From: Candidatus Baltobacterales bacterium
GTDB lineage: Bacteria > Chloroflexota > Dormibacteria > Dormibacterales > Dormibacteraceae
Length of the DNA stretch: 64,000 bases
NCBI GenBank assembly: GCA_035533335.1
Contig: DATLUC010000031.1
Coordinates: 45,814-109,813 of the forward strand
Reading direction: 5' to 3'
Shown: piece after piece, positions 32,795 to 37,224 of the stretch
How the letters are laid out: every line of letters begins with the position of its first letter
How positions within the stretch are numbered: position 1 is the first letter of the stretch
Program-made: the position numbers and the translations under genes
Notes under the pieces: model-generated
Told to the model about the DNA's origin: nothing
The model's database searches: none
What the model saw: only the letters and a program-made list of their open reading frames with translations

Positions 32795-34183
32795 GTGTCA
32801 GCCCTGTCTTCGCACCCTGTAGAGCCGCGTGCTCCGACTGGGTCGGCGAAGACGTCGGGCCGTCGGGGACGCCGTCGTGGAGTCGAGATCAAGCCCGGAT
32901 CCGCAAGGCAAGCACGCCTGGAAGCCGGTCTGAGCTTGGCCCAGGTGGCCGGGGACCAGATCAGCCGTACCGCGATCTATTTCGTCGAGACCGGGAAGGC
33001 GAAGCCGTCGATGGAGACGCTCCGGTTGATCTCGGAGCGCACCGGCCGCCCGCTCGAGTTCTTCCTCGCCCAGCCTGCGGAGGGCAACCCCGCGATGTAC
33101 GCCGGGACGGCTGAGCTGGAGCGCCTGATCGCGTCCGGTGCGCTTACCGAGGTCGTCGCGACCGGCGAGCGGGTGCTCGAGCAGAGATTGGACCCGGACA
33201 CCGAGGCCAGGGTCAGGCACCTGGTCGCCACGGCTCAGCTGCGGCTCGGTCAACCGGTGGTCGGCCGCCGCCTGGCGGCCGCGGCTCGGGCCCACTTCGA
33301 GCGGGTCGGCGACTTGCTGATGACGGCCGAGTGCCTGTGCTCGGAGGCCCAGGGCGCCTACCTGATGCAGGATCCCTCGGCGCTCTCCCTGGCCGAGGGC
33401 GCGCTGACGACGGCACGTTCCCTCAAGGTCCTGCCGCCGTCGACTGAATTCCGGTTGCTCGGAACTCTGGCCGGCGTCCATGCCACAAACCGCAACTGGC
33501 CGGCCGCGATCGAGGCATACCAGGCGTCAATCGCCGCGGGCGACAGCATCCATGACCTGCGGCGTCTTTCCCTCACCTTCAGCGGCTTGAGCCTCGCCTA
33601 CCAGGAGCTGGGTCAGATCAACCAGGCTTCTCGTTACAGCCAGCGTGCGCTGGCGATCCACGAAACCTTGAACGACCGGATCTCCCTGGCTCGCTCCGAG
33701 AACAACCTGGGCCTGCTGCTCGTAAGAGTCGGCGAGCCTGCGTCGGGGCGACCTCACCTCGAGCGGGCGCTGCGTCTTTTCGAGGAGGCTGGGTTGACCG
33801 GCCGCAGTGATGTCCTCTTGAGCATGAGCGAGCTCGAATTCACGCAGTCCAACTTCGCAAAGGCCGCCGAGCTTGCCCGCCAAGCCTTGAGCCTCGCGGT
33901 CGAAGAAGCCGCGGTGGGCCGCATCGCGGATGCTCACTTTTGGCTTGGCCGGATTGCCGCCTCGGAGGGGCGCGATGAGGCTGCCGATGCCGAGTGCGCC
34001 ACCGCCATCGGGATACTCGAGGCGGCGGCGGCTGTCGAGCGTTTGGCGCAAGCGCACGCGATCTACGCGGAAATCCTCGAGGCTAGGGGCGATCTGAGCG
34101 GAGCCAATCGTCAATTGAGGCACGCGCTCGCCGCTTCCCGTCCGGGTCCGCACGCGTCCGACACGCGAGCCGCCACGGCCTGA
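32795..34183 (+). CDS. XRE-family HTH regulator with a long TPR-type repeat domain
   Basis: N-terminus ARLEAGLSLAQVAGDQISRTAIYFVETGKAKPSMETLRLISERTG (HTH_XRE), followed by about 350 aa of helical repeats (LSLAYQELGQINQASRYSQRALAI, NNLGLLLVRVGEPASGRPHLERALRLF, etc.). Confidence 0.85.
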   Translation: MSALSSHPVEPRAPTGSAKTSGRRGRRRGVEIKPGSARQARLEAGLSLAQVAGDQISRTAIYFVETGKAKPSMETLRLISERTGRPLEFFLAQPAEGNPAMYAGTAELERLIASGALTEVVATGERVLEQRLDPDTEARVRHLVATAQLRLGQPVVGRRLAAAARAHFERVGDLLMTAECLCSEAQGAYLMQDPSALSLAEGALTTARSLKVLPPSTEFRLLGTLAGVHATNRNWPAAIEAYQASIAAGDSIHDLRRLSLTFSGLSLAYQELGQINQASRYSQRALAIHETLNDRISLARSENNLGLLLVRVGEPASGRPHLERALRLFEEAGLTGRSDVLLSMSELEFTQSNFAKAAELARQALSLAVEEAAVGRIADAHFWLGRIAASEGRDEAADAECATAIGILEAAAAVERLAQAHAIYAEILEARGDLSGANRQLRHALAASRPGPHASDTRAATA

Positions 34184-34736: not shown

Positions 34737-36326
34737 TCAATCCTGGCCGCCGTTCGCCTGGTGGGCATACTCGAGCGAGTCAACCAGGGCGAGCAGCGAG
34801 GCTTCGATGATGTTGCTCGAGCACCCGACCGTGGTCCAACGTTTCGCATCCTTGCCCGATTCGATCAACACGCGAGTGGTGGCGGCCGTACCGGCCTCGC
34901 CGTCGAGGATGCGCACCTTGTAATCGTGGAGGCTGACGCCTTCCAGCGCGGGGAACTGCGGGCTCAACGCTTTGCGGAGGGCCGCGTCCAGGGCGTTGAC
35001 CGGCCCGTTGCCGGACGCGGCGGTGTGGTACACGGCGCCGCCGACCTCGACCTTCACGGTTGCCTCCGCATGCACGGACGAGCCGTTCTTACGGACCTGG
35101 GTCGTGAAGTCCACGACCGTCCACGGCGCCGAATAGCCGGGCTGCAGTCGCCGGACCAGCATCGCGAACGATGCTTCCGCTGCCTCGTACGAGTAGCCGC
35201 GGTGCTCGAGCTCCTTGAGGTGCTGGACCAGCCAGCGGGTCTGCGGGTCGTCGCGGTCGAGCTCCAGGCCGAACTCTCGCGCCTTCGCCAGCACGTTGCC
35301 CCGGCCTGCCAGCTCCGACACGAGCACGCGAGGCTCGTTACCGACCAGGCCCGGGTCGATGTGCTGGTACGCGTCCTTGTGTTTCAAGACCGCGGCCACG
35401 TGCTGGCCGCCCTTGTGCGCGAACGCCCCGTGTCCGACGAACGGCTGCTGCAGCGGCAGGGCCAGGTTGGCGATCTCTGCGACGGTCCGTGACAGGTCGC
35501 TGAACCGCTCCACCGATTCGCGGGGGAGCGCCTCCAGGCCGAGCTTCAACACGAGGTCCGCCACCACAGACACGAGGTTGGCGTTGCCGCATCTTTCCCC
35601 GTAGCCGTTGATGGTGCCCTGGACCATTTCGGCGCCGGCCATCACTCCCTCGAGGGAGTTGGCGACCGCGAGCTCGCAGTCGTTATGGCAGTGGATGCCG
35701 ATGCGCGCGGTGGCCCCGGCCTCGGTCAGCGCCCGGCTGACCGCCTCGACTCCGCGCCGGATGTCGGCCGGCAGCGATCCGCCGTTGGTGTCGCAGAGCA
35801 CGACCCACGACGCGCCGGCGCGCGCCGCGGTCAGGCAGACCTCGATCGCGTATTCAGCATCCCTGGCGAACCCGTCGAAGAAATGCTCGGCATCGAAGAT
35901 CACCTCGCGGTCCCGCGCGATCCCGTACGCGACCGATTCCTCCACCATCGCGAGGTTCTCGGTCGTCGTGGTCTGGAGCACGGCGCTCACCTGCCAGGGG
36001 TCGCTCTTGCCAACCAGCGTCCACACCGGGGCGGCGCTCTGCGCCAGCGCCGCGAGGTTGGCGTCGTCTTCGCAGCTTCCGCCTGCACGGCGCGTCGCGC
36101 CGAAGGCCGCCAGCCTCGCGGTCTCCAGGGGCTGGATTCGAAGGCGATCGAAGAGCTCCTCGTCCTTGGGGTTCGAACCCGGAAACCCCCCTTCCACGTA
36201 GTCGAACCCAAGGCCGTCCAGGAGCCGCGCTATGCGCAGCTTGTCCGAGGCGGAAAAGGACACGGCCGGACCCTGCGCCCCATCGCGCAAGGTGGTGTCG
36301 TACACCACGATTCTTCGGCTGGACAT
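34737..36326 (-). CDS. cimA: (R)-citramalate synthase (2-isopropylmalate synthase family, CimA-type)
   Basis: VVYDTTLRDGAQG, HCHND and a C-terminal LeuA-dimer-like regulatory domain. The start is ATG 36326 (MSSRRIV), preceded by GGGAGG-U7. Confidence 0.9.
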   Translation of the reverse strand: MSSRRIVVYDTTLRDGAQGPAVSFSASDKLRIARLLDGLGFDYVEGGFPGSNPKDEELFDRLRIQPLETARLAAFGATRRAGGSCEDDANLAALAQSAAPVWTLVGKSDPWQVSAVLQTTTTENLAMVEESVAYGIARDREVIFDAEHFFDGFARDAEYAIEVCLTAARAGASWVVLCDTNGGSLPADIRRGVEAVSRALTEAGATARIGIHCHNDCELAVANSLEGVMAGAEMVQGTINGYGERCGNANLVSVVADLVLKLGLEALPRESVERFSDLSRTVAEIANLALPLQQPFVGHGAFAHKGGQHVAAVLKHKDAYQHIDPGLVGNEPRVLVSELAGRGNVLAKAREFGLELDRDDPQTRWLVQHLKELEHRGYSYEAAEASFAMLVRRLQPGYSAPWTVVDFTTQVRKNGSSVHAEATVKVEVGGAVYHTAASGNGPVNALDAALRKALSPQFPALEGVSLHDYKVRILDGEAGTAATTRVLIESGKDAKRWTTVGCSSNIIEASLLALVDSLEYAHQANGGQD

Positions 36327-36358
36327 AAAAAAACCTCCCGACCTGGATGGCCGGGAGG
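36327..36358 (-). terminator. Intrinsic terminator/attenuator hairpin immediately upstream of the cimA start codon
   Basis: The minus-strand RNA is CCUCCCGGCC-AUCCA-GGUCGGGAGG followed by U7 and then AUG. The 3' arm contains the cimA Shine-Dalgarno (GGGAGG). This is the only A7/T7 run I noticed in the window. Confidence 0.65.
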
Positions 36359-36381
36359 TCCCACGACTCGAGCGGAGTGCG

Positions 36382-36444
36382 CTAAGTCGGGGGACCTCCC
36401 CGGCTAATCTCGATCGCAATTCCAATCCGGCGCAGGCAGCGCAT
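36382..36444 (-). CDS. Candidate Ile-rich leader peptide of the cimA attenuator
   Basis: ATG 36444 gives MRCLRRIGIAIEISRGGPPT and stop TAG at 36382-36384. Four Ile codons (ATT, ATT, ATC, ATT) fall within 7 positions. The last codons form the 5' arm of the antiterminator. Confidence 0.5.
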   Translation of the reverse strand: MRCLRRIGIAIEISRGGPPT

Positions 36445-36564
36445 TGCGCGTAAGGCTAAGGCATCGAGCGATGGGCCGTTATGGATTTCACCCCCAAATA
36501 CACGAGCGGGGATTAGTGGCGCGCCGACAGCCCGGATGCGACTCCCACTGTCTATCTTTCGCGC

Positions 36565-37224
36565 GTGAACCCGGAAGTCCTCGGCCTGCTGGTCGAATCG
36601 CCCGATCGGCCCGGCGTCTTCTACCGGGTGGCGGAGACGATCTTCCGCCATGGGGCCAACATCACGTACATCGCCGGCGGCGAGCATCGGGCCGGCGCAG
36701 CCCAACTGCAGATGGAGGTGAGCGGTGCCGCCGACAGCGCGCGGCTGCTCCAGGATCTCGAAGAGCTCGAGGTGGTGACCCGCGTCACAGTCGTTCCGAC
36801 GTTCCAGGCGATCTACGGCAAGCGGGTGATCGTGATCGGCGGCGGCGCGCAGGTCGGCATGGTGGCCCAGGGGGCGGTCTCGGAAGCGGACAGGCACAAC
36901 ATCCGCGGGGAACGCATCTCGGTCGACACGATCCCGCTGGTCGGCGAGCAGCAGCTGGCGGACGCTGTGCGCGCGGTGGCACGGCTGCACCGGGCTCGGG
37001 CCCTTGTCCTCGCAGGCGCCCTGATGGGTGGCGACATCAGCAACGCGGTGCGCGAGATCCGCGAGGCGGGAATCTTGGTCGTCTGCACCAACATGGCCGG
37101 CTCCGTGCCTGATGCCGCCGACCTGGTCGTCAGCGATCCCGTGGAAGCCGGGGTGATGGCTGTGATGCTGATCGCCGACACGGCCAGCTTTTCCATCGAG
37201 CACGTGCGCGGACGCCGCTTTTAG
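36565..37224 (+). CDS. ACT-domain protein with a C-terminal domain of unknown function
   Basis: N-terminal ACT-like LLVESPDRPGVFYRVAETIFRHGANITYI. The C-terminal half (VIVIGGGAQVG...) is an uncharacterised Rossmann-like region. GTG start. Confidence 0.6.
   Translation: MNPEVLGLLVESPDRPGVFYRVAETIFRHGANITYIAGGEHRAGAAQLQMEVSGAADSARLLQDLEELEVVTRVTVVPTFQAIYGKRVIVIGGGAQVGMVAQGAVSEADRHNIRGERISVDTIPLVGEQQLADAVRAVARLHRARALVLAGALMGGDISNAVREIREAGILVVCTNMAGSVPDAADLVVSDPVEAGVMAVMLIADTASFSIEHVRGRRF

Follow-up and report, generated by a model that had tools for sequence, protein, structure and literature searches.

We report that cimA, the (R)-citramalate synthase gene carried by a 64,000-nucleotide (nt) stretch of contig DATLUC010000031.1 from a Candidatus Baltobacterales bacterium (referred to below as the window), is directly preceded by an element which, with a probability of roughly three in four, is a ribosome-mediated leader-peptide transcription attenuator tying cimA expression to the supply of charged isoleucine (Ile) tRNA. 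The element combines a short open reading frame (ORF) enriched in Ile codons with two mutually exclusive hairpins, a candidate intrinsic terminator and an antiterminator, and it remains linked to cimA in related genomes. An Ile-sensing attenuator had been proposed here from the letters of the window (hereafter, the sequence-only reading); the proposal is now supported by conservation at 27 of 27 related loci and by unrelated analogues found upstream of cimA in three other lineages.

The product of the regulated gene, called a citramalate synthase in the earlier proposal, was confirmed as such by the equivalog model TIGR00977 (635.2 bits for a cutoff of 450), and the LeuA models all remained under their cutoffs. 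On the upstream side, the leader frame is continuous with a 273-amino-acid (aa) minus-strand ORF (36382-37203). This ORF was rejected as a gene because it shadows 36565-37224 on the plus strand, which encodes an ACT + DUF5612 protein and displays coding-type GC content at third codon positions (GC3). Since the upstream ORF is only a shadow, the leader sits in a divergent intergenic region of 238 nt, and since no minus-strand gene ends upstream, the terminator has no upstream gene to terminate. Gene callers choosing the 273-aa shadow ORF, or skipping ORFs of fewer than 30 codons, will hide the leader.

The 20-codon leader ORF (36444-36382) was found base for base as first read, with four Ile within seven consecutive codons. 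Among the 127,960 seven-codon windows of the 64 kb (six frames), at least four Ile occurred solely in this leader and in its reverse-complement echo. The echo, 'ISIAIPI' on the plus strand (36407-36427), was discarded as a candidate of its own, as reverse-complementing R-ATY codons yields it automatically and the element follows cimA, not the upstream gene. The impression that ATT is uncommon in this GC-rich sequence also proved correct: in the 44 likely genes of the window, Ile makes up 4.9% of the codons and ATT accounts for 46 of 819 Ile codons (5.6%). In the 20 distinct leader sequences of the family described below, by comparison, Ile represents 18% of the codons, a share that rises to 30% when Met and the structured tail are left aside, and ATT represents 48% of the Ile codons. 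Valine (Val) and leucine (Leu) contribute as little as 1.6% and 1.3% of the family leader codons, respectively, and the codon signal is thus Ile-specific. The family leaders being mutually related, nominal binomial p-values for this enrichment overstate its significance.

Immediately before cimA, CCUCCCGGCC (36358-36349) and GGUCGGGAGG (36343-36334) form a 10-bp stem closed by the loop AUCCA and followed by U7 (36333-36327) and the cimA AUG at 36326. This hairpin has a folding energy of -20.4 kcal/mol and was the sole terminator-like site returned by a consensus terminator scan of 36200-36700, on the minus strand only. In the antiterminator, GCCGGG-G-AGGUCCC (36404-36391) pairs with GGGACCUCCCGGC (36362-36350) over 13 bp with one bulged G, and the helix is extended by CGACUU/GAGUCG and AGCG/CGCU to a hairpin totaling 23 bp. 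Bases 36358-36350 are used by both helices, so that the terminator and the antiterminator are mutually exclusive. All of these pairings, as well as the overlap between the terminator 3' arm and the Shine-Dalgarno (SD) sequence of cimA, lie where the sequence-only reading had placed them.

Folding of the minus strand from 36460 to 36320 with RNAfold yielded the antiterminator as the minimum-free-energy (MFE) structure. The energy of this 141-nt region (-63.3 kcal/mol) was well below that of dinucleotide shuffles (-50.2 +/- 3.3 kcal/mol; z = -3.98), none of the 200 being as good. When the two conformers suggested by the sequence-only reading were compared, energies of -58.2 kcal/mol for the antiterminator and -54.4 kcal/mol for the enforced terminator were obtained. 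Nascent RNA extending up to the terminator loop was already folded as the antiterminator before the terminator 3' arm had been made, and in untranslated RNA the mean base-pair probability was 0.88 for the antiterminator versus 0.004 for the terminator. Folding of the window sequence revealed neither a trp-like 1:2 hairpin nor a stable helix between the Ile-codon region and the antiterminator 5' strand; owing to the missing 1:2 hairpin, naked RNA is predicted to read through by default.

The position of the cimA SD (GGGAGG, 36339-36334) within the terminator 3' arm, and the presence in the leader of GGGGAGG, an SD mimic competing for one and the same strand (CCUCCC), would both suit a mainly translational switch in which CCUCCC serves as an anti-SD that masks the ribosome-binding site of cimA, with little or no transcription termination. 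We regard such a switch as rather improbable. An invariant U7 behind a GC-rich 10-bp stem of -20 kcal/mol is the signature of an intrinsic terminator, and in the distant analogues presented below the terminators lie 8-131 nt upstream of the cimA start without an SD inside, making termination the shared feature. The two outputs are furthermore compatible, and both are part of the attenuator as we understand it.

Table 1 Positions of the cimA leader, its regulatory parts and the flanking genes in the window
Feature	Position	Strand	Basis or remark
cimA, (R)-citramalate synthase, 529 aa, regulated gene	34737..36326	-	TIGR00977; Pfam HMGL-like + HCS_D2 + LeuA_dimer
Leader ORF MRCLRRIGIAIEISRGGPPT, 20 codons + TAG	36382..36444	-	read from sequence; ATG at 36444, TAG at 36384-36382
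Regulatory Ile codon cluster: ATT 36426-24, ATT 36420-18, ATC 36414-12, ATT 36408-06	36406..36426	-	read from sequence
Antiterminator hairpin	36350..36404	-	5' strand 36404-36380 (last 7 sense codons + TAG), loop 36379-36375, 3' strand 36374-36350; MFE structure
Terminator hairpin CCUCCCGGCC-AUCCA-GGUCGGGAGG	36334..36358	-	terminator scan; 5' arm common to antiterminator 3' strand
U7 tract of terminator	36327..36333	-	doubles as spacer between SD and cimA AUG; invariant in 20 distinct relatives
cimA SD GGGAGG	36334..36339	-	embedded in terminator 3' arm; (G/C)GGAGG kept in family
Putative -10 hexamer TAGCCT (TAnnnT)	36453..36458	-	8 nt upstream of leader ATG
ACT + DUF5612 protein gene	36565-37224	+	divergent from cimA; coding-type GC3

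Conservation was examined at 27 loci encoding a CimA protein at least 80% identical to that of the window and for which upstream sequence was available; they were gathered from genome and metagenome scans and nine contig look-ups, and correspond to 20 distinct sequences. The nearest CimA proteins (84-93% identical) are named Candidatus Dormibacterota (Dormibacteria of Chloroflexota), which assigns the window to that lineage, and a match at 80% identity in the genome collection is labelled Chloroflexi. A covariance model built from the first 11 leader sequences detected the leader at all 27 Dormibacterota loci, always ending exactly at the cimA AUG, and no further copy was found with it elsewhere in the 62 sources or in the rest of the window. 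The gene upstream varies among the relatives, being a divergent ACT-DUF5612 gene, a divergent MIP channel gene or a co-directional transglutaminase-like gene. As the element accompanies cimA whichever of these genes lies upstream, it belongs to cimA.

All family copies retain an in-frame start (ATG in 18, GTG in 2), a frame of 17-26 codons with 3-6 Ile each (for example MRNQRGIAIEISRGGPPT, MRKQIANEIEITRGGLPT, MHSAIAIGIGIVIRRGGPPI and MKVSNAIAIEIRLGGPAT), both hairpins and a stop codon that falls within the 5' strand of the antiterminator. The Ile codons swap synonymously between ATT and ATC, and the N-terminal codons and both hairpin loops drift. Counting from the stop codon, Ile occupies position -24 nt in 20/20 sequences (always as ATT), -30 in 19/20, -36 in 15/20 and -42 in 7/20. 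The ATCGAGATT block encoding Ile-Glu-Ile (36406-36417 and its equivalents in relatives) is almost invariant at the nucleotide level, with a last ATT that is never ATC; it is conserved beyond what the coding of Ile needs, and no pairing partner was found for it. The peptide tail RGGPPT is encoded by the antiterminator 5' strand. A peptide-level role of this tail, such as polyproline stalling, was considered and judged unlikely, in that the PP pair is lost in 5/20 sequences (S-P, L-P, P-A), mostly through C-to-U changes that preserve G-U pairs, which indicates a constraint on the RNA rather than on the peptide.

Across the 20 sequences, 91% of the antiterminator cells are paired, with 5 compensatory pairs, and 94% of the terminator cells are paired, with variable loops and zero compensatory pairs. 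Each of five measures of antiterminator covariation was reached by at most 4 of 500 shuffles, and most of the covariation resides in the apical hairpin, a part that both conformers contain. Covariation was set aside as structural proof, being indistinguishable from shuffles with 11 sequences and, with 20, modest and dependent on a model-fitted alignment. It is weak because the stems are nearly invariant, and little variation is expected in strands that must pair in two ways, encode codons and form an SD. Support for the structure thus comes from stems that are conserved while the loops vary, and not from strong covariation. In terms of what the sequence-only reading had anticipated among relatives, the small ORF and both stems held at all 27 loci, and covarying stems were found in weak form (5 pairs, none of them in the terminator). 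When the sequences were folded one by one, the terminators ranged from -11 to -22 kcal/mol and the antiterminators from -31 to -42 kcal/mol; at full length, the two conformers differed by no more than a few kcal/mol.

GC-rich DNA often contains long hairpins and open frames, and the leader is in frame with the 273-aa shadow ORF, as would be the case if the arrangement were due to chance or represented an ordinary terminator or insulator between divergent genes. The comparative data effectively refute this explanation: the element has been kept with cimA at 27/27 loci in three genomic contexts, and to this are added the fold z-score of -3.98, an Ile cluster unique in the 64-kb window and the lack of any minus-strand gene ending upstream that would need terminating.

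The 5' end of the family was next considered. A TAnnnT hexamer (TAGCCT, TAGGCT, TACTCT and similar) is located 8-12 nt before the leader start in all 19 members with upstream sequence, and no purine-rich SD was seen between this -10-like hexamer and the leader start in the 19 sequences examined. Scanning of the window region with a strict sigma-70 consensus returned no promoter, and the promoter proposal is built on the conserved TAnnnT alone. From this hexamer and the missing SD, we infer that the leader transcript is probably leaderless or near-leaderless. A conserved ATGCC abuts the hexamer on its upstream side. Further conserved blocks lie upstream of the putative -10 (36481-36518, minus strand), namely CACTAA (36518-36513) and ATTTGG-N10-CCAT (36499-36481), the latter often forming an imperfect inverted repeat such as TTGGCGCC-T-GGCGCCAA at locus L085. 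The ATTTGG...CCAT and ATGCC blocks are kept in most of the 19 relatives, even next to a different upstream gene; CACTAA is not retained in some relatives having another upstream gene (e.g. L084, L086 and L175). These blocks may represent a -35/UP element or the binding site of a transcription factor, which would add a second layer of control.

Under the proposed mechanism, transcription would start at or 1-2 nt before the leader AUG, and a ribosome would load as soon as the 5' end emerges. When Ile-tRNA is plentiful, this ribosome would reach the UAG and hold the antiterminator 5' strand single-stranded, because the UAG lies inside it; CCUCCCGGCC would then pair with GGUCGGGAGG, and the hairpin with its U7 would halt the polymerase one base short of the cimA AUG, burying the cimA SD as well. 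When Ile-tRNA is scarce, the ribosome would stall at the Ile codons further upstream, 30-42 nt ahead of the stop, and the antiterminator would form first, sequestering the terminator 5' arm such that the polymerase enters cimA with the SD exposed. Untranslated RNA would likewise adopt the antiterminator, placing the system ON by default.

These states were modeled by masked folding, in which the bases covered by a ribosome are withheld from pairing and the remainder is folded at equilibrium. With the ribosome masked at the stop codon (UAG, 36384-36382, inside the antiterminator 5' strand), the full terminator formed in silico in 20/20 family sequences, in agreement with the claim that a ribosome at the stop melts the antiterminator and permits termination. 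The companion claim that stalling at Ile codons leaves the antiterminator intact held in part. A ribosome on Ile codon 7, 9 or 11 of the window leader left the antiterminator in place with 0-4 terminator bp. On codon 13, the invariant ATT at -24 nt, the ribosome is only 4 nt from the antiterminator, would melt its outer 6 bp and gave the terminator in equilibrium folding. Only Ile codons 30-42 nt before the stop therefore fit the stalling model in masked folding.

Several observations weigh against an Ile-sensing attenuator. One is the behavior of codon 13, since other Ile codons fit the model better than this best-conserved one, whose placement it leaves unexplained. In about half of the family, moreover, the conformers are near-isoenergetic and the terminator prevails in equilibrium folding even when a ribosome is placed on the upstream Ile codons, so that the model leans on co-transcriptional kinetics, with the antiterminator forming first. 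The covariation, counted on an alignment fitted to the model, is weak. The case is built from sequence and folding in an uncultured lineage. Finally, look-alike leaders of ilvB and leuA in Streptomyces coelicolor did not behave as classical attenuators when mutated, as reported in PMC1262725.

This Streptomyces precedent (PMC1262725) would also be in keeping with a leader that is translated and exerts its control by other means than Ile-tRNA stalling, whether as a general readout of translation or leaderless initiation or through Rho or another factor. Default read-through, under which any drop in leader translation would induce cimA, and the awkward position of the invariant Ile codon for antitermination point the same way. 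Even so, we hold this to be unlikely: the enrichment concerns Ile specifically and not Val or Leu, Ile keeps fixed positions across 20 sequences, with use of the rare ATT, unrelated cimA leaders from other phyla are Ile-rich too, and a canonical intrinsic terminator is present, leaving Rho unneeded.

The search for such unrelated leaders covered the 400 nt upstream of cimA at 160 loci and required a small ORF in which a stretch of 7 codons holds 3 Ile or more, with a hairpin and U-run downstream. Sixteen loci were retrieved on the forward strand versus 3 in the reverse-strand control. One of the 16, L132, was eliminated because its ORF is the 3' (C-terminal) end of an aspartokinase gene, not a leader. 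Outside Dormibacterota, the candidates comprise L003 from another Chloroflexota lineage (2320-2445; MTMHHKASIMIIQLGGTPPS), L042 (2290-2440) and L054 (2339-2480) from Kuenenia (...IGGIIIARPLQHA), L045, L046, L063, L066 and L071 from Planctomycetia, and L068 (2274-2440) and L075 (2343-2490) from Syntrophaceae and Smithella of the Syntrophia (MTTNPIIEIIIRGIIISFPEGGLAGE). The motif IGGII.ARP..HA and the terminator are common to both leaders from Kuenenia. The candidate leader at L063 (1333-1461) is built from repeated GCGATTCC(T/G)GGCC units (peptide ...AIPGLAIPGLAILGLAIPG...), and all of its Ile codons are ATT. None of the analogues from outside Dormibacterota matches the Dormibacterota covariance model, and they are not sequence homologues of the window leader. 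In 8 of 10 analogues, the terminator 5' arm pairs in a truncated fold with a segment at most ~26 nt from the leader stop, which overlaps or abuts the stop in 6; the layout of the window leader thereby recurs. At L003 and L071, the Ile-rich ORF and the terminator are present, with no clear antiterminator in the truncated MFE fold. Ile-leader attenuation of cimA may thus be widespread, extending to anammox and other Planctomycetota, Syntrophia and another Chloroflexota lineage. Such attenuators may be missing from annotation because there is no Rfam model for them and gene callers miss ORFs of 17-26 codons.

Most of the other cimA loci scanned have no such Ile-rich ORF, and many carry an aspartokinase gene directly upstream. 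Aspartokinase directly before cimA, with no leader ORF, was noted at L013, L026, L051-L053, L074, L080, L132, L137, L143, L147, L150, L155, L159 and L160. The aspartokinases concerned, which come from many phyla, end in an ACT sequence of the form ...MISTSEIKIS...ALHEAF, and their adjacency to cimA suggests an ask-cimA operon.

Known regulatory RNAs were also searched for. No Rfam family reached its gathering score in the window (all 4227 models, the T-box and any curated leader-peptide families among them), and lowering the stringency to E values up to 10 over 36200-36800 brought up only spurious miRNA and sRNA hairpin matches. A T-box before cimA, expected by analogy with Geobacter, was looked for and dropped, there being no match in the window or within 2.5 kb on either side of cimA at 40 other loci. 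A full-text search of the available library uncovered no description of leader-peptide, attenuation or T-box control of cimA or citramalate synthase, and none for Dormibacterota; leader-peptide surveys of Actinobacteria and Streptomyces lividans list ilvB, leuA, trp, cys and others, with cimA absent (PMC1262725, PMC8079986). The sequence-only reading was aware of no description of this specific leader, and no matching Rfam family or paper was found.

The same searches bear on a further explanation, that of a ligand- or protein-binding structured RNA, riboswitch-like or T-box-like, in which the short ORF is incidental. It would account for stems that are near-invariant beyond their pairing need and for the nucleotide-level conservation of the ATCGAGATT block. 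It nevertheless appears very improbable in view of the missing Rfam matches, T-box included, here and at 40 other cimA loci, of a structure that is a simple long hairpin with neither a multi-helix junction nor a conserved internal loop, of an in-frame start at a fixed distance from the -10-like hexamer (19/19), of Ile codons that vary synonymously, and of analogues that share the ORF-plus-terminator design and not the sequence. Where Ile, Leu and Val genes of Firmicutes and some other phyla are controlled by tRNA sensing, T-boxes (RF00230) are usually responsible. As with a T-box, scarce or uncharged tRNA-Ile would lead to an antiterminator instead of a terminator; unlike a T-box, the cimA leader would sense it through a translating ribosome and not by direct tRNA binding.

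The cimA leader is best filed, on present sequence evidence, as a further case of the classical ribosome-mediated attenuators, one that would be Ile-specific, probably leaderless, three-stranded and ON by default, with an SD inside its terminator. Mycobacterial Cys attenuators are not known to act through a canonical terminator. The classical enterobacterial examples are trpL, hisL, leuL, thrL, ilvL of ilvGMEDA and ivbL of ilvBN, for which PMC4007540 and PMC8079986 cite reviews. As in these enterobacterial systems, the cimA leader contains a short ORF in which codons for the amino acid made by the pathway are over-represented, an intrinsic terminator immediately precedes the first structural gene, one strand is used by both the terminator and the antiterminator, and a ribosome at the stop codon would favor termination. 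It differs from them in showing no sequence or Rfam similarity, in Ile codons that alternate (I-x-I-x-I) rather than forming a run, in a leader ORF devoid of an SD, in a terminator 3' arm that is the SD of the regulated gene and in its target, cimA, which belongs to the pyruvate route to Ile. Whereas trp/his-type attenuators have four segments and terminate when untranslated, the cimA leader has three interacting strands and its untranslated RNA would read through; and whereas ilvL is multivalent (Ile, Leu, Val), the cimA leader would sense Ile alone.

Parallels also exist among leaderless leader peptides. The ilvBNC leader peptide of Corynebacterium glutamicum, MTIIRLVVVTARRLP, is leaderless, its transcript having been measured to start at or 1 nt before the start codon (PMC11857589), and leaderless attenuator leader peptides have likewise been measured in Deinococcus deserti (PMC4007540) and S. 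lividans (PMC8079986). The cimA leader resembles those of C. glutamicum ilvBNC and actinobacterial ilvB (PMC11857589, PMC1262725, PMC8079986) in its high-GC organism, its branched-chain pathway and its hairpins followed by a U-run. Like that of C. glutamicum, its leader peptide lacks a ribosome-binding site, the leaderless start being measured there and only inferred at cimA. The C. glutamicum leader, on the other hand, precedes ilvB, uses Ile, Val and Leu codons and spans 292 nt with three hairpins, compared with cimA, Ile only, ~118 nt and two alternative hairpins in the present case. A small cognate-rich ORF with a 5'-AUG at the mRNA 5' end, as proposed for cimA, is found among the 14 predicted leaderless leader peptides of D. 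deserti (PMC4007540) and the polycysteine leaderless short ORFs of mycobacteria (bioRxiv 10.1101/834739). These small ORFs precede amino-acid biosynthesis or tRNA-synthetase genes, and involve other amino acids and genes than the cimA leader; the main text on D. deserti names no cimA leader (PMC4007540).

Our understanding of attenuation as such is unchanged by these findings, the mechanism being a textbook one. For Candidatus Dormibacterota, soil bacteria represented here by metagenome assemblies only, they provide a concrete regulatory element that can be tested, and control at the committed step of the pyruvate (citramalate) route suggests that this route is a main source of Ile in these organisms. 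An RNA family could be founded on the covariance model and alignment, and an element this compact (~118 nt) and Ile-specific could serve as a sensor for high-GC hosts.

A more elaborate scheme can be conceived on the basis that the leader would be leaderless and ON by default, with an invariant rare AUU (-24) placed where a stall favors termination. In this scheme, the leader would be a two-tier or band-pass Ile sensor: under mild Ile shortage, ribosomes would come to rest at the late, wobble-read AUU, leaving cimA off or partly on, and under severe shortage they would stall early, turning cimA fully on. The terminated leader RNA (~118 nt, with the SD mimic GGGGAGG) could in addition act in trans, as does the Sinorhizobium meliloti trp attenuator RNA rnTrpL (PMC7968998), and Ile-leader control of cimA would be recurrent and unrecognised in at least three phyla. 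Taken as a whole, we view this scheme as a long shot.

As regards the neighborhood of cimA, the ACT + DUF5612 protein is a homologue of AF1403 (PDB 1Y7P), of unknown function. An ACT-DUF5612 neighbor is also present at L081, L085, L089, L001, L166 and L167, and other Dormibacterota are without it; the presence of an amino-acid-binding ACT domain beside a gene of the Ile pathway may reflect a functional link. In L002, a 64%-identical Chloroflexi relative (2150-2475), cimA stands directly behind a leuB-like (isopropylmalate dehydrogenase) gene with no leader, and any attenuator would therefore have to precede that leuB-like operon. Downstream of cimA and on the same strand, a phosphoenolpyruvate carboxylase gene is found in several Dormibacterota, at L161-L164, where the frames overlap by a few bases, and at L173 and L174, after a gap of ~50 nt. 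In the window (32795-34183, plus strand) and at L167-L172, this place is taken instead by a convergent gene for an HTH_3 + TPR regulator.

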